DNA of 32,000 nt, from NCBI RefSeq assembly GCF_003231495.1, contig NZ_PQWO01000004.1:1-32000 (forward strand). Direction: 5' to 3'. Position numbers and translations under genes: made by a program. The notes beneath the pieces are model-generated. The model did not search any database, was not told the DNA's origin, and saw only the letters and a program-made list of their open reading frames with translations. Within the stretch, counting starts at the first letter, position 1, and the number at the start of each line of letters is the position of its first letter. This DNA comes from Acaryochloris thomasi RCC1774. Its GTDB lineage: Bacteria; Cyanobacteriota; Cyanobacteriia; Thermosynechococcales; Thermosynechococcaceae. Of the stretch, positions 2,907 through 16,539 are shown in pieces.

Positions 2907-2980
2907 AAGTGCAAACGCTAATGGTTGTTAAAATTAATCCCTGGCTTGGAGACGGTTAGCAAGAAAGCAAAGAAACAACC

Positions 2981-3078
2981 ATGCCTCCGTAGTAGAGCTC
3001 TACTATTGACGGATTAATGTAGTAAGACTATATTTATTGTAGTAGTAGAGCTGCAGTAGAGCTCTACTACGGAGGCAT
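2981..3078. repeat. 98-bp inverted-repeat structure: two perfect 24-bp arms around a 50-bp AT-rich spacer
   Basis: The left arm ATGCCTCCGTAGTAGAGCTCTACT (2981-3004) is the exact reverse complement of the right arm AGTAGAGCTCTACTACGGAGGCAT (3055-3078). Each arm contains the 14-bp perfect palindrome AGTAGAGCTCTACT (2991-3004 and 3055-3068). A third direct copy of GTAGTAGAGCT lies at 3042-3052 (compare 2989-2999). Confidence 0.9.
3006..3034 (+). promoter_or_regulatory. Putative sigma70-type promoter inside the inverted-repeat spacer
   Basis: TTGACG (3006-3011), a 17-nt spacer, then TATATT (3029-3034). It points toward the operon that starts at 3097. The predicted 5' UTR carries the right repeat arm and GGAGG (3082-3086). 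Confidence 0.4.
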
Positions 3079-3096
3079 CATGGAGGTAGTTATGAA

Positions 3097-3333
3097 ATGA
3101 ATCATCAGAATCAACGTTCTGGGCCAGTTCCTCGTGAGTCAGTTGTGGTTGCTTCCTTTTCGAGGTCACCGATAGTCTATATTGCTCTGATTTTCGGTGG
3201 GGCATGGCTTTTGCTTTATACGGTTGTGCGTAGTGATTTTCCTGGGTCTTTTGAGTTTTTTCTTGCTCCTGATGATGGCATGCATATCAAGATTGATGGA
3301 GTGCAAAAAGATGTAGCTGAGGGGATGCAGTGA
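3097..3333 (+). CDS. Small single-pass membrane protein, family not recognised
   Basis: ATG at 3097 lies 10 nt downstream of GGAGG (3082-3086). 78 aa with one hydrophobic helix (IVYIALIFGGAWLLLYTVV), an R-containing N-side and an acidic C-tail. Its TGA (3331-3333) overlaps the GTG start (3330-3332) of the next gene. Composition matches the downstream hsd genes. Confidence 0.5.
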   Translation: MNHQNQRSGPVPRESVVVASFSRSPIVYIALIFGGAWLLLYTVVRSDFPGSFEFFLAPDDGMHIKIDGVQKDVAEGMQ

Positions 3334-3920
3334 AGACCACGGTCTTAAAAAATCTAGCTTTCATGTGGGTGGGGTATCCTTTTCGGACTCGGATTGAGCC
3401 GGATAAAAACGGAAGCATCACGGTAGTTCAGCTACGGAATCTTAAGGAAAATGGCGGTCTAGATTTATCTGAGGCAATAACTGTCAATCTGGATGATGTT
3501 GCGCCGCAGCTTTGGTTAATGCCAGGGGATGTGGTTTTTTACTCTCGGGGTTCATCGATGTTGGCAGCGTTGATACCTGAAGGAATTGGCAAGGCAATAG
3601 CGGCTGCGCCCCTATTGCTGATTCGAGTTAAGGATAAGAAAGAGCTGAATTCAGGGTATTTGGTTTGGTTTCTAAACCATCATCAGTTTGGTCAACGTCG
3701 ACTTTGGGCGAGGCGAGAAGGTTCCAATATCAAGATGATAAGCAAGGCAGGTTTATCTACTATCCAAATTGATATTCCATCGCTAGCTGATCAGTTGAAA
3801 ATTGCTGATCTGGCCGAACTACGGCGGCGAGAGAACGCATTAGTCCTGCGATTACAGGAGAAACGCAACTCATATATGGATGCTGTATTGATGAGATGTA
3901 TGCAAGGGGCGTCAGATTAA
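3330..3920 (+). CDS. hsdS: Type I restriction-modification specificity subunit-like protein, half-size (single target-recognition domain)
   Basis: 196 aa, about half a canonical two-TRD HsdS. It ends with an HsdS conserved-region pattern, IQIDIPSLADQLKIADLAELRRRENALVLRLQEK (compare the PLPPLxEQxxI motif plus coiled coil). It lies immediately upstream of hsdM. The start is GTG at 3330, coupled to the upstream stop; an internal ATG 11 codons in is an alternative. Confidence 0.72.
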   Translation: MKTTVLKNLAFMWVGYPFRTRIEPDKNGSITVVQLRNLKENGGLDLSEAITVNLDDVAPQLWLMPGDVVFYSRGSSMLAALIPEGIGKAIAAAPLLLIRVKDKKELNSGYLVWFLNHHQFGQRRLWARREGSNIKMISKAGLSTIQIDIPSLADQLKIADLAELRRRENALVLRLQEKRNSYMDAVLMRCMQGASD

Positions 3921-5461
3921 CTATGGGCGGATTACTTCAAGTTACTGCATCTGATATTAATCGCGCGCTTTGGAGAGCCTGTGATGTATTTCGAGGGGAG
4001 CTTGACCCTTCTAAGTATCGAAACTATGTCCAAGTGATGTTTTTTTGGAAGTATGTCAGCGATGTGTGGCGTGACCGCTGTGCTCAATATCAGAAGGAAC
4101 TTGGTGATAATCCAGACCAGATTAGATGCGAGATGTCTCACGAGTGGTTGGTATTGCCTGAGGGAAGTAGTTTTTACGATATTTATGAGCAGCGAGATGA
4201 GCCGTGCCTTGGCAATTTAATCCATGCTGCTCTAAGGACGCTTGAGGAGACATTAGCTCCAAGTATTCATTTACAGCATATTGACTTTGATTCTCAAGCA
4301 AATCTAGGTCAATCACAGAACCAGAAATTAAGAGAACTGTTAGAAGTTTTTAGCCGACCAGAGTTAGACCTACGTCCTTCACGAGTAGGTAGCGACATCG
4401 TTGGTAGCTGCTATGTAACTTTACTAGAGCGGTTTGCTGCTGAGGCAGGTAAGGGTATTGGTGGAGGTGAATTTCTTACTCCAGTACAGGTCTCTAAATT
4501 AGTGGCAAGGCTAGCCCAACCGAAAGAAGGAGATTTAATTTACGATCCGGCCTGTGGTTCAGGAACGTTATTAATTCAGGTGGCTAAGGAAGTTGAAGGG
4601 ACACATTATTCTCTCTATGGTCAAGAGAAAAACTTTAGTGCCTGGACCTTAGCACAAATGAATATGTTTTTAAATAACGAGCATAGGGCCAGGATGGAGT
4701 GGGGCGATACGCTGAGTTATCCAAAGTTTTTCCAATCCGAGTCTTCTCAATCCGCGCCCCTTCCTAAGGCTCTTATGCGGTTTGATGTTGTGGTAGCGAA
4801 TCCTCCATTTTCTCTAAGCCATTGGGGGGCAGACAATGCTAGGCATGATCCCTATGATCGTTTTCTGCGTGGGGTGCCGCCTAAAACGAAAGGGGATTAT
4901 GCGTTTATCAGCCACATGATTGAGTCCGCGCTGCCCTGTGAGGGACGGGTAGTAGTAGTGGTTCCTCATGGAGTTTTGTTTCGTGCGTCGAGTGAAGGCA
5001 AGATTCGACGCAAGTTGATTGACGAAAATCTTTTGGATGCGGTGATTGGTCTACCACCAAATTTATTGCCAAGTACTACTATTCCAGTAGCGATTTTGGT
5101 GTTTGACCGATCTCGTGAGAAGGGTGGCACCAATGATAATTACCAAGATGTCATCTTTATCGATGCCAGTCGTGATTTTCAGGTAGGAAAAACTAAAAAT
5201 TCCTTATTGGATGAGCATATTGAAAAAATTATTCAGACCTATAAGTCACGAGAAACTGTTGATAGATATGCCTCTGTAGCAACGTTGGAGGAAATTGAAG
5301 ATAACGATTTTAATCTCAATATCCCTCGCTATGTAGATACGTTTGAAATGCCTGAAGAGGTCGATATTGATGAGGTTAAAAGTGAGATTAAGAAATTAGA
5401 GGCAGAATTGACTGAGGTAAGAGTCAAGATAGCTGGATACTTAAAAGAGCTAGGTGTTTAA
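3896..5461 (+). CDS. hsdM: Type I restriction-modification N6-adenine DNA methyltransferase subunit M
   Basis: HsdM N-terminal pattern LWRACDVFRGELDPSKYRNYVQVMFFWKYVSD. SAM-binding motif I IYDPACGSGTLLIQ. Catalytic motif IV VVANPPFS. C-terminal NDFNLNIPRYVD. An alternative start is ATG 3923, 2 nt after the hsdS stop. Confidence 0.92.
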   Translation: MYARGVRLTMGGLLQVTASDINRALWRACDVFRGELDPSKYRNYVQVMFFWKYVSDVWRDRCAQYQKELGDNPDQIRCEMSHEWLVLPEGSSFYDIYEQRDEPCLGNLIHAALRTLEETLAPSIHLQHIDFDSQANLGQSQNQKLRELLEVFSRPELDLRPSRVGSDIVGSCYVTLLERFAAEAGKGIGGGEFLTPVQVSKLVARLAQPKEGDLIYDPACGSGTLLIQVAKEVEGTHYSLYGQEKNFSAWTLAQMNMFLNNEHRARMEWGDTLSYPKFFQSESSQSAPLPKALMRFDVVVANPPFSLSHWGADNARHDPYDRFLRGVPPKTKGDYAFISHMIESALPCEGRVVVVVPHGVLFRASSEGKIRRKLIDENLLDAVIGLPPNLLPSTTIPVAILVFDRSREKGGTNDNYQDVIFIDASRDFQVGKTKNSLLDEHIEKIIQTYKSRETVDRYASVATLEEIEDNDFNLNIPRYVDTFEMPEEVDIDEVKSEIKKLEAELTEVRVKIAGYLKELGV

Positions 5462-5705
5462 GACTTGCGTCATCGTGAAGCTGGGAAACTGCGATCGCAT
5501 GGCAACAGTCAGACACCACCACCAACCGTCGTGACGGAATGGATCTCAGGGCCTGGGTCAACTCCCCACCCAACAGGGCCGTACTCGCCACAATATTGTT
5601 CGCCGCCGCATCATAGCCCACATCCACCGGCAGCAAATATTCCCCGGCGCCTGCCCCGGCCTCAATCCGCTCCCCATGACAAGGAACATACCTCTCTTTT
5701 GTCAC
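5424..5705 (-). pseudogene. Remnant of a caspase-family (peptidase C14, metacaspase/orthocaspase-like) gene, truncated at both ends
   Basis: The 93-aa ORF contains YVPCHGERI...EYLLPVD...RRLVVVSDCCHA. That is a His...Cys dyad about 57 aa apart with the DCCH context typical of cyanobacterial C14 domains. An in-frame TAA sits just upstream and about 60+ aa of the N-terminal domain are missing. Similarity ends at DCCH(A), after which the frame runs into the hsdM 3' end (38-nt overlap). Confidence 0.45.
5491..5498. repeat. HIP1 octamer GCGATCGC at the right edge of the low-GC island
   Basis: Exact GCGATCGC. It is one of about 20 copies seen in the window (for example 630-637, 2535-2542, 6433-6440, 6596-6603). 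None was seen between 2543 and 5490. Confidence 0.9.
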
Positions 5706-8502: not shown

Positions 8503-10028
8503 GTTTGCTGTTGTAGAGGTTTTAGAGCTTCCGCTGGCTCTGCTGGCTCCGACTGGTGACGGATGCCTTCATAGATTTCGACATACTCTGTGGCCGGGTT
8601 GCGCCAAGAATAGTCATACTCCATGCCCTGCATCGCTAGCTTGCGAAATTCTTTGGGGTAGTCGTACCACAGACCCACGCCCCTTGCGATCGCACTTTCC
8701 ATCGCTGGGAGGTCACTTTGGTAGAACACATAGCCATTGCGCTCTTCGGGCTTTTTGTCGGCGTCATAATCGCGATCAAATACGGTGTTCACTAACCCAC
8801 CCACGCCCCGGACAACCGGCACCGTACCGTACTTCAATCCGATGATTTGGGTGAGTCCACAGGGTTCATAGTTGCTGGGCACCAGCACCATATCGGCAGC
8901 CGCATAGATGAGATGAGCCAGCTCCTCGTTGAAGCTGATTTCTAAATGGCAATCGGGGTTGCCGCTGAGAAAGTTCTTTTCATGCCAAAACTGGGCGTTA
9001 ATGGCCGCTTCCGTCGCAGACCCCAGCAGGACAAACTGCGCCCTATGGTGGAGCGAATAATAAATGGCGTGGTGCACCAGATGCACCCCTTTTTGCTGAT
9101 CGAGACGACCAATAAAGGCAATGATCGGCTTATCCTCTTCGTCCTGGAGGCCCAGTTGCTTGCGAAGTGCTTTCTTGTTGCGAGCCTTACTCTTGAAGTC
9201 GTCATGGGAATAAGGGAAAGGAATGTAGCAATCGCCTTCAGGGTCCCAAAAGCCATAGTCAATTCCGTTCAGCACACCGGAGAACTTGTGCTGGTGCATA
9301 TGGAGCGTATGACCGAGGCCGCAGCCGATCTCTGTGTGTCTGGCTTCCCAAGCGTGGTGAGGTGAAACCGTCGTCACGTAGTTAGAGTAGACAATCCCGC
9401 CCTTCATGAGATTAAGCGCAAAGGGATTGAACGGATCCTGCAATCGGTCTGGGTGGAAGTAGTAGTCGGGGCGATTGAGGCCGATGGCTTCTAAAACGTT
9501 ATAGCCGGTTTGTCCCTGGTGCTTGAAGTTGTGAATGGTGTAGCAAACTCTCTGAAATTCAAGCCCATGATACTGATACATTTCGTAGAGCATGACGGGA
9601 ATTAACCCGGTTTGCCAATCATGACAGTGAAGTACGTCAGGGCATTTGTTGCTCTGCTGCAAAAATTCCAGCGCCGCCTTGCTAAAGAAGGCAAACCGCA
9701 TAGGGTCATCAGGTGCTCCGTAGTACACCCCCCGATGGAAGTAGTTTTCGCTGGAGTGTGGCTCAATAAAAAAGCACAGCCGCCCGTGAACCCAGCCGCA
9801 GTGAACCGTACAGTAAATGACGCTGCCGTACCAGGGCACTTTGAGGTCGGCGTAGGCTTCATGAAGTCCCCAAATATGGTCATAGCGCATGCAGTCGTAC
9901 TTGGGCAAAATCAGTTCGACACAGTGGCCCTGAATTTCGAGTTCTCGGCTCAGCCCATATACAACGTCGCCCAAACCACCGGCCTTAATGACGGGGGCAC
10001 ATTCAGACGCGATTTGAACGATGTACAT
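8457..10028 (-). CDS. glgA: Glycogen (starch) synthase, GlgA2-type
   Basis: 523 aa. The N-terminus MYIVQIASECAPVIKAGGLGDVVYGLSRELEIQGHCVELILPKYD carries the KxGGL ADP-glucose motif and is GT5/GT1 fold-like throughout. The 3' end overlaps the convergent MscS gene by 46 nt. Confidence 0.95.
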   Translation of the reverse strand: MYIVQIASECAPVIKAGGLGDVVYGLSRELEIQGHCVELILPKYDCMRYDHIWGLHEAYADLKVPWYGSVIYCTVHCGWVHGRLCFFIEPHSSENYFHRGVYYGAPDDPMRFAFFSKAALEFLQQSNKCPDVLHCHDWQTGLIPVMLYEMYQYHGLEFQRVCYTIHNFKHQGQTGYNVLEAIGLNRPDYYFHPDRLQDPFNPFALNLMKGGIVYSNYVTTVSPHHAWEARHTEIGCGLGHTLHMHQHKFSGVLNGIDYGFWDPEGDCYIPFPYSHDDFKSKARNKKALRKQLGLQDEEDKPIIAFIGRLDQQKGVHLVHHAIYYSLHHRAQFVLLGSATEAAINAQFWHEKNFLSGNPDCHLEISFNEELAHLIYAAADMVLVPSNYEPCGLTQIIGLKYGTVPVVRGVGGLVNTVFDRDYDADKKPEERNGYVFYQSDLPAMESAIARGVGLWYDYPKEFRKLAMQGMEYDYSWRNPATEYVEIYEGIRHQSEPAEPAEALKPLQQQTYGLPVSDASSLENR

Positions 10029-10363
10029 AGAAATTCCTCTAGCAACCTGCTTATAGAAGCCCAGAAGTATCAGACTCCCTCTGGAAAAGTATAGATTCCC
10101 AGCGGCCCCTTTTTAGACCTGTTTCTAGTCTCCGATCTCTCAGAGATTTTTCCCATTCCTCTCTATTTTCTGAAACACCCTACCCATAGGAAGCAATAGA
10201 GGTGAGTCTGATTAGCCCCCTACAGATCCTTCAGAACTGATTGTTCCGACACAGTGGGTTGAAGGTGATCACCGATGGATGTCTAGGGAGACTTTGTGCC
10301 ATCACGACGCTTTCGATTCAGTTGCTAGACTCAACATGGCCACAACCACATTAGGAGACAGCT

Positions 10364-10933
10364 GTGATGGAGATTGGCGGCGCAGAATGTTTAGGGGCTA
10401 AGGTTATTGCCGTGAGTCGGAATCAAGCCCATACGTTCCATAAGTCTAATCAGAAGAGTGTTCAACTGCTCGCGGGCCTTGGAGTTCAAGGAGATGCCCA
10501 TATGGGGCAAACTGTAAAACATCGATCACGAGTGGCGTCTGACCCTAGTCAACCCAATCTGCGTCAAGTTCATCTCATTCATACTGAACTACACGCTGAA
10601 CTGCGGGCTTCTGGTTTCAATATTGCCCCAGGCCAAATGGGAGAAAATATTACGACGCAAGGTATCAAGCTTCTTGATTTACCGAGGGGGACACGGCTCC
10701 ATATTGGAGAGACAGCCGTCATTGAAGTAACGGGTTTACGCAACCCCTGTTCGCAACTGGATCAGTTCCAGCCGGGTTTAATGGCTGCTGTTTTAGACCA
10801 CGATGCTCAGGGCAAGCTGATTCGCAAGGCTGGCATTATGGCGATCGTGTTGGTGGATGGTACAGTCAGCCCCCAGGATCCGATTTGTACTGAGCTGCCT
10901 CCACAGCCTTATCAAGCGCTTGAGAGAGTTTGA
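10364..10933 (+). CDS. MOSC domain-containing protein
   Basis: 189 aa. GENITTQGIKLLDLPRGTRLHIGETAVIEVTGLRNPCSQLD is the MOSC beta-barrel with the conserved Cys. Start is GTG 10364 or ATG 10367. Confidence 0.85.
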   Translation: MMEIGGAECLGAKVIAVSRNQAHTFHKSNQKSVQLLAGLGVQGDAHMGQTVKHRSRVASDPSQPNLRQVHLIHTELHAELRASGFNIAPGQMGENITTQGIKLLDLPRGTRLHIGETAVIEVTGLRNPCSQLDQFQPGLMAAVLDHDAQGKLIRKAGIMAIVLVDGTVSPQDPICTELPPQPYQALERV

Positions 10934-10983
10934 GAGGGTAGCTAGCGTAATCTGTATTGAAGGCCAAGATTTGAGGAAGAGAG

Positions 10984-11859
10984 ATGAAGCTGCATAACAG
11001 GCACAAACGCAAAAAAAGACGAAAACTTTGGCGAAAATTCGTTCCTGTCTTGAGCTTACTGCTGTTGTTTGCGATCGCACTCCCTATCTACGGCTTTAAG
11101 ATCGAACCCTATTGGCTACAGGTCAAAACCGTACCGCTTACCCTGCCCCATCTTGCCTCAGAGTTTGATGGCTACCGAATAGTTCAGCTCAGCGACCTGC
11201 ATATCGTTGATGAGATGCCCCAGCGCTATTTAGAACGTGTGATTCGAGTGACGAACCGCCAACAGCCTGACCTAATTGCGATCACAGGAGATATCGTCAC
11301 GGACGAGCCGCAGCGCTACGCCTCCAGAATAGAAGCAGCTTTGCAGAAGCTAGAAGCGCCCACCGTTTCCGTCATGGGCAATCACGATCACTGGTCAGAC
11401 CCCACGGCCGTACGTCAGATTCTAAAAAACAGCCGGGTGATTGATATCAGCAATGGTGTATACGATGTATATCGAAAATCAGCCCAGCTCCATATTGCGG
11501 GTGTTGATGATGTGTGGGCAGGGGCTGCCGATCTCGATCTCGTAATGGCGCAGTTGCCTGACGAAGGTGCAGCTATTCTGTTAGCCCACGAGCCAGATTT
11601 TGCCGATACGGCGGTTAAAACCCATCGGTTTGATCTAGAGCTGTCAGGCCATGCCCACGGAGGACAGGTGACGATTCCCTTTGTCGGTCCCCCAGTTCTG
11701 CCTCCCTACGGTAAGCGCTACCCAGTGGGACAGTATCAGATTGAAGATTTAATTCAGTACACCAATCGAGGGATTGGAATGGTTTCCCCTCGTGCTCGTT
11801 TCGGCAGTCGGCCCGAAATTACGGTGTTTCAGCTCTCTTCTGCACAAGCTGCAGAGTAA
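10984..11859 (+). CDS. Metallophosphoesterase (calcineurin-like) with an N-terminal membrane anchor
   Basis: Motifs DLHIVD, GDIVTD, GNHD and GHAHGGQ in canonical order. The N-terminal basic stretch plus hydrophobic helix is VPVLSLLLLFAIALPIYGF. Confidence 0.9.
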   Translation: MKLHNRHKRKKRRKLWRKFVPVLSLLLLFAIALPIYGFKIEPYWLQVKTVPLTLPHLASEFDGYRIVQLSDLHIVDEMPQRYLERVIRVTNRQQPDLIAITGDIVTDEPQRYASRIEAALQKLEAPTVSVMGNHDHWSDPTAVRQILKNSRVIDISNGVYDVYRKSAQLHIAGVDDVWAGAADLDLVMAQLPDEGAAILLAHEPDFADTAVKTHRFDLELSGHAHGGQVTIPFVGPPVLPPYGKRYPVGQYQIEDLIQYTNRGIGMVSPRARFGSRPEITVFQLSSAQAAE

Positions 11860-11927
11860 AGATCTTCAATTGCCGTCGTCATCCCGCTTTGATATCGTAG
11901 CCTCAGCGCTGAATGAGAGTGCACCCT

Positions 11928-12842
11928 TTATTTCAACTGCTTTAGCCAAATCCTTAAATTCTCAATCTGCTCGAAATCAAGCAGCGCTTCACCTAACAGC
12001 TCAGTTTGCTCGAAAGAGAGAGAGGAGATCGCAGCTTCCTCAGCTGCAGACAGTGCTCCTACTTTGCGGATCAGTTGACGGATCACCAGCGATCGTTCAC
12101 GCTCAAGTCCCTGCTCAAGTCCCTGCTCAAGTCCCTGTTGCTGTGTGGTTTGCTCCCACTCCAGGAATGCTTGTGAAAGCGCCATGACGGCCTCCTGCTC
12201 TTCAATCTCTATTCCACTTAATTCTATCGTAAGCTTCCAACTGCTCAGGATTCTCAGCATCAGAGATCGTTCGGGCTGATCTGCTGAGAGAGCAAATACG
12301 TCGGCTACAGCTTCCGCCTGAACTGTTCCGCTTCCTAATACTCTCAAGATCAGCGTCTCACGGGTTCGGGGCAGTTCATTAATTGAGACGAAAGCTGTCT
12401 TCAGCCCTGGGACCGTGAAGTATATGCCGTCGCCCCAGTCAGCATTACCTCTTGCACCAAATTCCTGTAGTACAGGCTTAGAAATAGAGGTTGCCAGAAT
12501 CCAGAGGAACGGTAGTGTTTCTTCTACGATTGACTGTTCCTGTCTTCCAGCCTTGCGCCTCAATTCTTCTTGGACCCACAGTAGCTTCAGCAAGCAACTA
12601 CGAACCTCAAAGCGGCTAGGTGGATTGCGGTAGGGTTCTAGTAAGCACGGTGTTTGAGCAATCTTGCTGAGGACATCAGGGGTTGAGGGCGCGATAGGTT
12701 TAGTCTTGAGATGAGGAACAAACCATAAATCAACCCACTTTGCTTCACCGGGGATTTCTAAACTCCGCTGAACGGTTCCGAAGGGGGCGAGTAATTCTTC
12801 TAGCAGTTGTTTGGACAGCTGGTCATGGGGGTGCTGAGTCAT
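11928..12842 (-). CDS. DUF4351-domain protein of a cyanobacterial multi-copy family (putative PD-(D/E)XK nuclease-like)
   Basis: 304 aa. The C-terminus SLVIRQLIRKVGALSAAEEAAISSLSFEQTELLGEALLDFEQIENLRIWLKQ fits the DUF4351 pattern as I recall it. It shares that pattern with the gene at 15715-16539. It contains a QGLE x3 repeat. Confidence 0.75.
   Translation of the reverse strand: MTQHPHDQLSKQLLEELLAPFGTVQRSLEIPGEAKWVDLWFVPHLKTKPIAPSTPDVLSKIAQTPCLLEPYRNPPSRFEVRSCLLKLLWVQEELRRKAGRQEQSIVEETLPFLWILATSISKPVLQEFGARGNADWGDGIYFTVPGLKTAFVSINELPRTRETLILRVLGSGTVQAEAVADVFALSADQPERSLMLRILSSWKLTIELSGIEIEEQEAVMALSQAFLEWEQTTQQQGLEQGLEQGLERERSLVIRQLIRKVGALSAAEEAAISSLSFEQTELLGEALLDFEQIENLRIWLKQLK
12101..12136. 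repeat. Perfect 12-bp tandem repeat x3 (GCTCAAGTCCCT) inside a CDS
   Basis: Units at 12101-12112, 12113-12124 and 12125-12136. On the minus strand they encode QGLEQGLEQGLE. Confidence 0.9.
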
Positions 12843-12900
12843 CGAGGAGCCAAGAAAACTCTACTCATTTTTAAGCTATGTGCGTCCCAGGTAAAGGTTA

Positions 12901-13359
12901 TCAGTCGTCACCATCATCAACCATTTTGAGGGGGTTGGCGCGGTCTTCAACGGGCCACTCAGGATTCTCTCCTCCGATGATCAGCTCCTGAATCTGAACG
13001 AAGTCTTGGCTGAATCTTTTTAGGGTATTGATCAGAACATCAAGTGCGATCGCATCACTGGTTCCCAGATCAATCCAAATCCGACACCAGTAGCCCTCAT
13101 ACTCAAACTCCCCCATGTTGTGCATCAGTGCCATCAGGGGTGTATCAGAGGTGGTCTCGCTATAGGGCATATAGCTGAGATCAACCCCCGCGTCCTGCAC
13201 CTGGAGATTCTCCGCGTCAAAGCCTCCTAGCTTCCCAAGAAAAAACCAGGAATTAAACACCTCTTCTAGATATTGCTTTTCCTGCTCTGACGGAGCCGTC
13301 TCAAACTCTACCCAAATCCATAGATCAAAGGCGTTGAATTCCCGGAAAGATACGTTCAT
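12901..13359 (-). CDS. Conserved cyanobacterial/plant-type protein of unknown function (DUF3531-like, from memory)
   Basis: 152 aa. FREFNAFDLWIWVEFETAPSEQEKQYLEEVFNSWFFLGKLGGFDAENLQVQ resembles the DUF3531 family. The ATG lies 7 nt after the upstream TPR gene stop. Confidence 0.7.
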   Translation of the reverse strand: MNVSFREFNAFDLWIWVEFETAPSEQEKQYLEEVFNSWFFLGKLGGFDAENLQVQDAGVDLSYMPYSETTSDTPLMALMHNMGEFEYEGYWCRIWIDLGTSDAIALDVLINTLKRFSQDFVQIQELIIGGENPEWPVEDRANPLKMVDDGDD

Positions 13360-15714: not shown

Positions 15715-16539
15715 CTACAGACGTTCTTGCAGCCATGTCTCTAGCGCACTCAAATCGGTGATGTCTAGCAGTGCGATGCTGAGGTCTTCGGTTTGCTGTA
15801 GTGAGAGTGACTTGATTCTCTGATGCACTACAGAGGGTAACTTACCAAAGCGATGTGCGAGCTGACGCAGAACAAGCGATTGTCCTTCTTCTTGACGGCC
15901 TTTTTCGCGGCCTACACCTTCAATATCTTGGTAGATTACCGACTGCTTCATGGTCTCTTGCCTCAGAACCCGATAAATAAAGTTGCTCTCTAATGATAGC
16001 CCTGCCAGTATTGCCGCAGAGGCCAAGACATTATTTTGCGTCTGTGGGTCGTTGATTGCGCCGGCTCGCAAGGCCACCTGCTTCAGGGCTTGAGTTTTGT
16101 CTGGGTTTTTGGTCAAAACCGCTAGCGGCAAAAGACCTGGTGATGCTAGAAAAATCTCAGTGGGTTGCTCCTAGAGGCGAATCACTTCAAATTCGTGACG
16201 GGTGCCTGGGATTTCGAAAATCGTTTGCTGAACAAGTTCAGATGTTGAGTGCATTAGGTAAATGACAACCTGCTTCATCTGTTTATCGGGGAAGCGACGA
16301 AAGGCTCGGGTTCGATAATCGAGCATTCTAAAGGGCATAGATGGATCTGGCTCTGTCTGAAACTCGATGTGAAGAACGATCTCATCGGATTCGAGCAAAA
16401 TCAGGGCATCGGCGCGGATGGGTTCAACGGCTAGTTCGGTGGGGCTGAGGGTTGTGAGGGTAATGGGTTGGCCCAGTAGCCAAGCGGCGAAGTCGCTGGA
16501 AAATGACTCAGCGAGAAACTTGCAGGTATTGTCATACAT
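15715..16539 (-). pseudogene. DUF4351/PD-(D/E)XK-like (Rpn-like putative nuclease) gene interrupted by one in-frame TAG
   Basis: Track ORFs 16171-16539 and 15715-16131 are in the same frame (16539-16131=408). The only interruption is TAG at 16171-16173. Read-through gives ...EFEVIRL*EQPTEIFLASPGLLPLAVLT..., one continuous family-typical sequence. The C-terminus has the DUF4351 pattern SLVLRQLAHRFGKLP...LSLQQTEDLSIALLD...LETWL. Confidence 0.72.

Follow-up and report, generated by a model that had tools for sequence, protein, structure and literature searches.

A truncated hsdS_short-type Type I system with a membrane-protein leader and paired palindromic boxes in Acaryochloris thomasi RCC1774

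The three-gene module and its cassette

The first 32,000 nt of contig NZ_PQWO01000004.1 of the cyanobacterium Acaryochloris thomasi RCC1774, hereafter called the window, carry three genes packed head to tail, which encode a 78-aa membrane protein with one transmembrane (TM) helix, a 196-aa half-size relative of the Type I specificity subunit HsdS (S_short) and the DNA methyltransferase subunit HsdM (Table 1). The locus is a truncated hsdS_short-type Type I system with a membrane-protein leader, which is a new arrangement. Its promoter is bracketed by paired bipartite palindromes, a feature newly described here that is found at S_short-HsdM operons of many lineages. The tight packing reported in a sequence-only reading of the window was confirmed to the nucleotide: the TGA of the small open reading frame (ORF) at 3331-3333 overlaps the GTG start of the S_short gene at 3330-3332 in a shared GTGA, while the S_short TAA at 3918-3920 lies 2 nt ahead of the hsdM ATG at 3923 or 25 nt within the gene if hsdM starts at the alternative ATG 3896. 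Homologues and gene calls in relatives favour the start at 3923, and as an exact look-up of the 521-aa form returned no record, hsdM is probably called from that ATG.

S_short gives a single match to Pfam Methylase_S (24.4 bits, cut-off 22) and aligns with nearly all of the 208-position PADLOC model Specificity_I PDLC03199 (2.8e-27), which bears out the earlier description of a half-size specificity protein with one target recognition domain (TRD). The two TRDs and two helices of a regular HsdS are not present, as there is one Methylase_S match, one C-terminal helix and no second S gene in the window. Its profile matches the solved S subunits 5YBB, 3OKG, 1YF2 and 2Y7C over residues 14-187 and the half-S homodimer Esub1 (8VSQ/8VSR) over residues 33-157 (5e-6), and the conserved S helix aligns with its last 45 residues. 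S_short of the window shares 48-55% identity with its counterparts in the full six-gene operons described below; a tblastn search with S_short against 50,697 phage records gave no match.

The canonical motifs previously noted in HsdM (512 or 521 aa, depending on the start) were likewise found, with DPACGSG and NPPF both present and matches to N6_Mtase (8e-91), HsdM_N (1e-15) and TIGR00497 (244 bits, cut-off 242.75). It is 63-65% identical to HsdM of the full operons L046 and L033 and shows no C-terminal truncation relative to them. Neither HsdR nor a full-length HsdS nor a YgjP-like peptidase was found in the window by ORF lists and tblastn with the proteins of sister loci, the best match having E = 0.015 over 33 residues, and HsdR is also missing from the recurring unit described next. 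An orphan Type I methyltransferase, the simplest interpretation offered from the sequence, is the best description of this gene content.

The module recurs as a cassette. In blastn, positions 2925-5683 of the window match positions 52-2809 of Logan contig L001 at 88.6% identity while both flanks are unrelated, and as the match ends at 2925 and 5683 the unit spans 2.76 kb. It comprises a leader of ~170 bp, the three genes and a 3' stretch of 220 bp with a caspase-like gene fragment on the opposite strand, and its GC content is 43-46% within the module as compared to 50-56% on the flanks. The window-type cassette is also borne by contig L005 and one other short contig; a metagenome scan gave no more at ≥88% identity. 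No tRNA or known RNA element was found at the cassette ends, and there is no visible target-site duplication at either 2925 or 5683. At its left end the cassette has 65 bp (2925-2989, CCCTGGCTTGGAGACGGTTAGCAAGAAAGCAAAG...) that are kept in L001 despite their position upstream of boxes and promoter, and that show no terminal repeat.

The caspase-like fragment, with SDCCHA and CHG motifs, lies directly 3' of hsdM, overlaps its end by 38 nt and falls mostly inside the shared cassette, at the position where intact relatives have a full-length HsdS and HsdR. Its DNA is also present in L001 (2590-2810), where the frame is broken by indels. The fragment appears to be a relic of whatever replaced these two genes.

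Table 1. Features of the A. thomasi module, and paired boxes upstream of related S_short-HsdM operons
Feature	Position	Strand	Sequence or basis
Recurring cassette, 2.76 kb (leader, three genes, 3' remnant)	2925..5683	+	blastn, GC
Box 1, operator-like	2990..3005	.	TAGTAGAGCTCTACTA (TAGTA-N6-TACTA); perfect 16-bp palindrome, abuts -35 hexamer
Sigma-70-like promoter	3006..3034	+	TTGACG, 17 nt, TATATT; 10/12 consensus matches
Box 2, operator-like	3054..3069	.	CAGTAGAGCTCTACTA; ~+13 to +28 of predicted transcript
Shine-Dalgarno of small ORF	3082..3086	+	GGAGG; read from sequence, 10 nt upstream of ATG
78-aa single-pass membrane protein	3097..3333	+	homologues, AlphaFold2; TM helix ~25-45, hairpin 50-68
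S_short, 196-aa half-size HsdS-like protein, one TRD and one coiled-coil helix	3330..3920	+	Pfam, PADLOC, structure profiles
HsdM, N6-adenine DNA methyltransferase subunit, catalytic motifs intact	3923..5461 (alternative start 3896)	+	hidden Markov models, motifs
Caspase-like (Peptidase_C14) gene fragment	5424..5705	-	Pfam E = 0.0077, below cut-off
Boxes, L001			as in window
Boxes, L028			GCAGTA-N7-TACTGC, twice
Boxes, L004			ACAGTA-N7-TACTGT, twice
Boxes, L046			GCAGTA-N7-TACTGC, twice
Boxes, L006/L033			GTA-N7-TAC, twice
Boxes, L002			CTGTA-N7-TACAG and TAGTA-N7-TACAG
Boxes, L064			GTAG-N5-CTAC, twice
Boxes, Bacteroidota			TTGTA-N7-TAC
Boxes, Methylocystis, Mesorhizobium, Novosphingobium			CTGTA-N7/8-TACAG
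Boxes, Gamma- and Deltaproteobacteria			CATCA-N7-TGATG
Boxes, Komagataeibacter			CACCA-N7-TGGTG
Boxes, Gluconobacter			CATGA-N7
Boxes, Burkholderiales			inverted CAGTAGAG pair around promoter
Boxes, Staphylococcus xylosus			TGTAG-N10-CTACA, twice, around promoter-like -35/-10 pair before hsdS_short

Related operons and the membrane-protein family

The order of S before M, which had been read as unusual, turned out to be a family trait. A genome scan for S_short relatives with one genome per species yielded 22 loci encoding a relative of 183-206 aa, and in 20 of these 22 HsdM comes next on the same strand, either immediately or behind one short ORF, the contig ending first in the other two. In most of the genome loci a normal HsdS of ~400 aa (S_long) and an HsdR of 1050-1250 aa then follow, often with other defence genes in between. 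S_short lies directly upstream of hsdM also in the plasmid loci L029 and L030, which were examined in full, in 10 further plasmid loci and in Staphylococcus xylosus. The annotated order is S, M, (RhuM), S, (Shedu), R on a Methylocystis plasmid and S, M, S, R, SprT-like peptidase on a Komagataeibacter plasmid, while seven genera of Burkholderiales have S_short-M pairs without S_long immediately downstream. Judged by gene order, S before M with an S that is short and conserved corresponds to the hsdS_short variant already known from Type I systems, here found over many phyla.

The Burkholderiales loci L020-L027 (~9,800-13,200) contain a triad of S_short, HsdM (487 aa) and an Abi_2-family protein, Abi_2 having been tested in L020 alone (E = 9e-9). 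As read from the ORF sequences, the triad adjoins dnaN and gyrB in several genera, and in some of the loci a second complete M-S-R system follows it. An inverted AACTCTACTG ... CAGTAGAGTT pair surrounds the triad promoter.

The closest intact relatives of the window locus are six-gene operons (L046-48, L062) that encode a TM protein (82 aa), S_short (201 aa), HsdM (508 aa), S_long (398 aa), HsdR (1074 aa) with HSDR_N, ResIII and SWI2_SNF2 domains, and a YgjP-like peptidase (237 aa); a TrwC relaxase adjoins L046. The same layout is found in L033-36 and L063, with a 54-aa paralogue of the small protein added upstream. Since these sister operons carry the small membrane protein and HsdR together, the small protein is no replacement for HsdR, and the tempting idea that it serves as an effector in place of HsdR, raised as a speculation in the sequence-only reading, has to be corrected for the window locus.

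S_long and HsdR are missing after hsdM in the window, L001, L002 and L064. The three-gene version in L002 adjoins a Tn3 transposase, integrases and ParA, and in L064 a tyrosine recombinase-like ORF, judged by reading its sequence, lies 80 nt after hsdM. HsdM of the window and of L002 are 56% identical to each other and each 63-69% identical to the core clade, within which identities are 84-89%; the R-less state therefore arose more than once, on long branches. On these comparisons, the window together with L001, L002 and L064 are three separate R-less derivatives of the operon, each reduced to three genes.

The 78-aa protein, identical to A. thomasi C1752_01494 (100%), has one strongly hydrophobic stretch, IVYIALIFGGAWLLLYTVV. 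Its homologues share 31-45% identity beyond the window's own subclade and 78-82% inside it, and have in common a TM segment and an F-P-G-S-I-E...G..(I/L)KIDG motif. Such a homologue lies directly upstream of every S homologue with at least 40% identity, and the co-occurrence that had been proposed as a check is therefore found, the small ORF being conserved beside this S/M subtype. Each of the homologous small ORFs is preceded by a Shine-Dalgarno sequence (GGAGG/AGAGG/AGGA). These signs mark the small ORF as a true gene that does not owe its existence to chance. Translational coupling to S_short is seen in the window clade but not in L004, L028, L046 and L064, in which ~48 nt separate the two genes.

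A profile search of 1.84 billion representatives gave 11 proteins at E ≤0.001, six of them short members of the small-protein family, and a search of 5.8 billion proteins gave 23 family members, of which the named ones are all cyanobacterial. No family was matched in Pfam, to which 22 members were compared at E up to 10, or in NCBIfam, PADLOC or PHROGs, so that a small, unannotated membrane-protein family is found heading a Type I operon. AlphaFold2 predicts a helix at residues 25-45 and strands at 50-57 and 61-68 with a predicted local distance difference test score (pLDDT) of 76, and in a Foldseek search of this model against the PDB every E value was above 1. A likeness of the C-terminal motif to PEGA domains, which had come to mind, was dropped as it lacks Pfam support.

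The charge distribution places the N terminus inside, and the protein would thus expose a small beta-hairpin on the outside after a single TM helix. The conserved part comprises the outer end of the TM helix and this short hairpin, which are predicted to be extracytoplasmic, a location that makes it less likely that an M/S complex in the cytoplasm controls the protein directly. Conservation of the cytoplasmic tail is poor. A paralogous subfamily of 51-75 aa (MKLGFT..., YPGLIELQC..DGC.VVIDGR) has two conserved Cys in the hairpin, which fits an extracytoplasmic location. Family conservation and operon context indicate that the small protein is a conserved, co-transcribed accessory from the ancestral operon and not an HsdR substitute.

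The paralogues also occur in L040-L045 (P0022 and relatives) among unannotated small genes, with no restriction-modification (R-M) genes nearby. The 54-aa paralogue in the L033/L063 operons is an extra gene upstream of the operon promoter (L033 6001-6165).

Paired palindromic boxes around the promoter

Upstream of the three genes, the promoter listed in Table 1 is the only plus-strand site, and it is framed by two copies of TAGTAGAGCTCTACTA at a centre-to-centre distance of 64 bp. At 3042-3052 there is also part of a third copy, GTAGTAGAGCT. The box core GTAGAGCTCTAC occurs in the window solely in boxes 1 and 2, even when 2 mismatches are allowed. The window boxes are flanked on both sides by nine further complementary bases, for which an RNA or DNA hairpin was considered and rejected on the grounds that L001 lacks compensatory change.

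Sites of the form TTGAC(G/A/T)-17-TA(G/C/T)ATT lie upstream of the module in L001, L002, L004, L006/L033, L028, L046 and L064, and the order of box, -35, 17 nt, -10, box and ribosome-binding site is kept in all cyanobacterial clade members for which upstream sequence exists. In L028, L046, L064 and L002 the two boxes of a locus have their arms in common and differ in their spacers. Beyond the cyanobacteria, boxes occur in loci without the small membrane protein, with half-sites that vary between lineages (Table 1).

On the plasmid of S. xylosus TMW 2.1324 (L032 12,270-12,350, minus strand) the box pair flanks a promoter-like site of TTGTTT, 17 nt and TATATT; the first box apparently also serves as the terminator hairpin of hsdR, and the second directly adjoins the ribosome-binding site. 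Asymmetric boxes, GCATCA-N7-ACTGCA/ACTGTA, are located upstream of S_short on a Vibrio penaeicida plasmid (L053), and seem to combine a gammaproteobacterial CATCA half-site with a cyanobacterial CAGT-like one.

The excess of such pairs was assessed with a strict criterion, which demands arms of 5 bp with at least two G/C and at most one mismatch among the four half-sites, an equal spacer of 6-8 bp in both boxes and centres 45-80 bp apart. Eight of 40 upstream regions are positive, as compared to 120 of 11,892 control windows (1%) taken from these loci, which corresponds to a binomial P of ~6e-9 for loci that are not fully independent. The boxes of the window itself fall short of this criterion by the G/C filter alone. 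Two looser criteria were left unused as too permissive for AT-rich sequence, since they scored 9.6% and 30% of the controls as positive.

No proteins other than S_short and HsdM are shared by all box-bearing loci, and one or both are therefore likely to be the reader of the boxes. Symmetric half-sites around a nonspecific spacer of 6-8 bp are what would be expected of a two-fold pair of TRDs held by a coiled coil. Furthermore, the half-site variants (CAGTA, CTGTA, CATCA, CACCA, CATGA) all end in A beside the spacer, and the N7 boxes would thereby offer two candidate target adenines 8 bp apart. The target adenines of EcoR124I are also 8 bp apart. This paired-operator architecture suggests that the short S protein regulates its own operon.

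A putative solitary methyltransferase and its alternatives

The explanation we favour, with a probability of about one half, is that the module encodes a solitary methyltransferase of the composition M2(S_short)2, which binds its own operator or methylates it, with the membrane protein as a co-transcribed accessory. The cassette would originate from the promoter-proximal half of a cyanobacterial hsdS_short-type operon of the six-gene kind described above, cut down to a horizontally moving unit of 2.76 kb that kept the first three genes and the control region. Two HsdM subunits may assemble on a homodimer of the half-size S_short, in which a coiled coil would join two identical TRD heads, and the resulting complex would act as a solitary adenine methyltransferase reading a symmetric bipartite site. 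In the R-less cassette, M2(S_short)2 would be the only possible methyltransferase. The predicted recognition site of the window copy is (T/C)AGTA-N6-TACTA, a long and rare palindrome. M2(S_short)2 or the S_short dimer alone on the boxes, or the methylation state of the boxes, could then feed back on transcription of the three genes, as a Type I counterpart of a C-protein or RptR circuit.

Several known systems resemble parts of this model. The closest is the staphylococcal hsdS_short variant hsdRSMS of S. xylosus, in which the conserved 191-aa hsdS_short has no variable regions, is the first gene of an S-M-S operon, is required for correct methylation and proves toxic on overexpression (PMC10030836). 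It shares with the window locus a ~190-aa single-TRD S directly before hsdM, an association with mobile elements and two bipartite palindromes, whereas the window lacks hsdS_long and hsdR, has an extra membrane-protein gene in front and shows a spacer of N6 (N7 in relatives) instead of N10. The window protein has weak similarity to the S. xylosus S_short (BLASTP, 21% identity, E = 1e-4 over 146 residues), and the two HsdM are 37% identical (E = 3e-107). Solitary or half-HsdS enzymes such as truncated EcoDXXI, EcoR124I and NgoAV likewise combine M and S without R, and, as related in PMC10030836, a half-size S should form dimers and read a bipartite sequence with symmetric halves. Their half-S proteins, however, are truncated two-TRD subunits with variable TRDs, whereas S_short forms a separate conserved lineage that occurs beside a normal S.

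Esub1 of Streptococcus pyogenes was crystallised as a symmetric half-S homodimer and is proposed to bind DNA like a transcription factor (PMC11754733). S_short likewise has a TRD-like head and a single dimerisation helix; unlike S_short, which stands in an operon with HsdM, Esub1 is encoded away from Type I genes and has an insertion helix. RptR, a soluble bZIP-like dimer of 79 aa, binds TAGCTA and is a proven autorepressor (PMC12255303). Its islands are similar in that a Type I, YgjP/M48-peptidase-type island starts with the regulator gene behind a promoter with repeated short palindromes, and their layout (regulator, M, S, inserted genes, R, peptidase) is that of the intact relatives of the window locus, in which S_short holds the first-gene place of RptR. 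Here, however, no protein of the RptR type is found; the window's 78-aa product is a membrane protein, and the candidate for binding the boxes is a dimer of S_short through its TRDs. The paired boxes link hsdS_short, reported in 2023, with Esub1, reported in 2024, and their presence around S_short-M promoters from cyanobacteria to staphylococci leads to the hypothesis that the short S is the operon's own operator-binding subunit.

A number of points weigh against a solitary, self-regulating methyltransferase. When S_short-M-S_long of S. xylosus was expressed in E. coli, only the S_long motif and no palindromic motif was methylated (PMC10030836), which would also be expected if the S_short site spans ~10 bp and is hence rare. 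The authors of the Esub1 study could not show HsdM binding (PMC11754733). The spacer is N6 in the window clade and N7 in most relatives, while the length of the coiled coil shows no obvious matching change, and the half-sites follow taxonomy, by which the reader may be a host factor. S_long and HsdR could be encoded elsewhere in the A. thomasi genome. Finally, in L001, a copy otherwise 83% identical to that of the window, HsdM has NPPL instead of NPPF in motif IV (L001 ~1,925-1,945), and the small gene of L001 has a ratio of nonsynonymous to synonymous substitutions (dN/dS) of 0.84, with changes of G to C, A to P and W to C in the TM helix. The L001 copy may be inactive, and given these signs of decay the three-gene state may be a slow road to loss.

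Among the alternatives, one makes S_short itself the regulator, and we regard it as rather unlikely. S_short would here be a TRD-built transcription factor whose homodimer, possibly with HsdM as co-repressor or methyl-sensor, binds the two boxes and autoregulates hsdS_short operons across many phyla. The three-gene cassette would then be an autonomous mobile unit, a DNA- or methylation-sensing switch controlling the membrane protein with its exported hairpin, which would have a function of its own, e.g. in exclusion or addiction.

It is similarly doubtful that the module is a non-functional remnant, a 5' end left behind when the rest of a Type I operon was deleted, which drifts to loss with its boxes as relics. 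The missing S_long, HsdR and YgjP genes with a caspase-like fragment in their place would fit this, as would the NPPL motif and the near-neutral small ORF of L001. Against it stand three intact ORFs with canonical motifs, the perfectly kept boxes and promoter, and a three-gene state for which three lineages attest origin or persistence, with recombinases as neighbours in two of them. In comparison with L005, at ~6-11% nucleotide divergence, dN/dS amounts to 0.41 for the TM gene, 0.29 for S and 0.26 for M, values by which the window copy is under purifying selection. Taken together, the codon comparisons suggest a three-gene state that is selected according to window and L005 and decaying according to L001.

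Decidedly unlikely is a split Type I system, in which S_short-M would work with a full-length HsdS and HsdR encoded elsewhere and restriction would take place in trans. Intact relatives do run S_short-M in one operon with S_long and HsdR, the window HsdM is full length, and several S_short-M pairs of Burkholderiales adjoin a second complete M-S-R system. Yet the 2.76-kb unit is found again, likewise R-less, in different genomic surroundings, two further R-less derivatives arose separately, none of R, S_long and YgjP-like lies within the 32 kb, and the long branch of the window-clade HsdM (63-65% to the core clade) suggests changed or relaxed partner constraints.

It is improbable that the protein bound to the paired boxes is a regulator of the host, LexA-like or other, instead of S_short or HsdM. 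The taxonomic distribution of half-site variants would agree with it, as would L059 and L061, which have a helix-turn-helix gene upstream and lack clear boxes. The boxes, however, move with the mobile cassette into different genomes, they stand before S_short-M operons in many sampled phyla as compared to 1% of control windows, and their build, symmetric half-sites with 6-8 bp of non-conserved spacer between them, is characteristic of a Type I specificity subunit. In spacing and core bases they do not appear to match LexA boxes.

Least probable of all is that M/S acts as a DNA sensor for the small membrane protein as a toxic or abortive-infection effector in the place of HsdR, since, although small membrane effectors are common in defence systems, the gene is conserved at the operon head and coupled to S_short in the window clade, R-less versions recur and the toxicity of overexpressed S. 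xylosus hsdS_short indicates that such a module can harm cells, the protein coexists with HsdR in intact operons, is conserved in its predicted extracytoplasmic part and not in its cytoplasmic tail, has a two-Cys paralogous subfamily away from R-M genes, matches no PADLOC or PHROG family and lacks the coupling in four relatives.

The genes neighbouring the module in the window are typical cyanobacterial housekeeping genes. Further downstream, three minus-strand ORFs at 11928-12842 (304 aa), 15715-16131 and 16171-16539 have, by reading alone, the look of Rpn/YhgA-like PD-(D/E)XK 'putative transposase' proteins with DUF4351-like C termini, a type of protein abundant in cyanobacteria, and the pair at 15715-16539 looks like a split copy.

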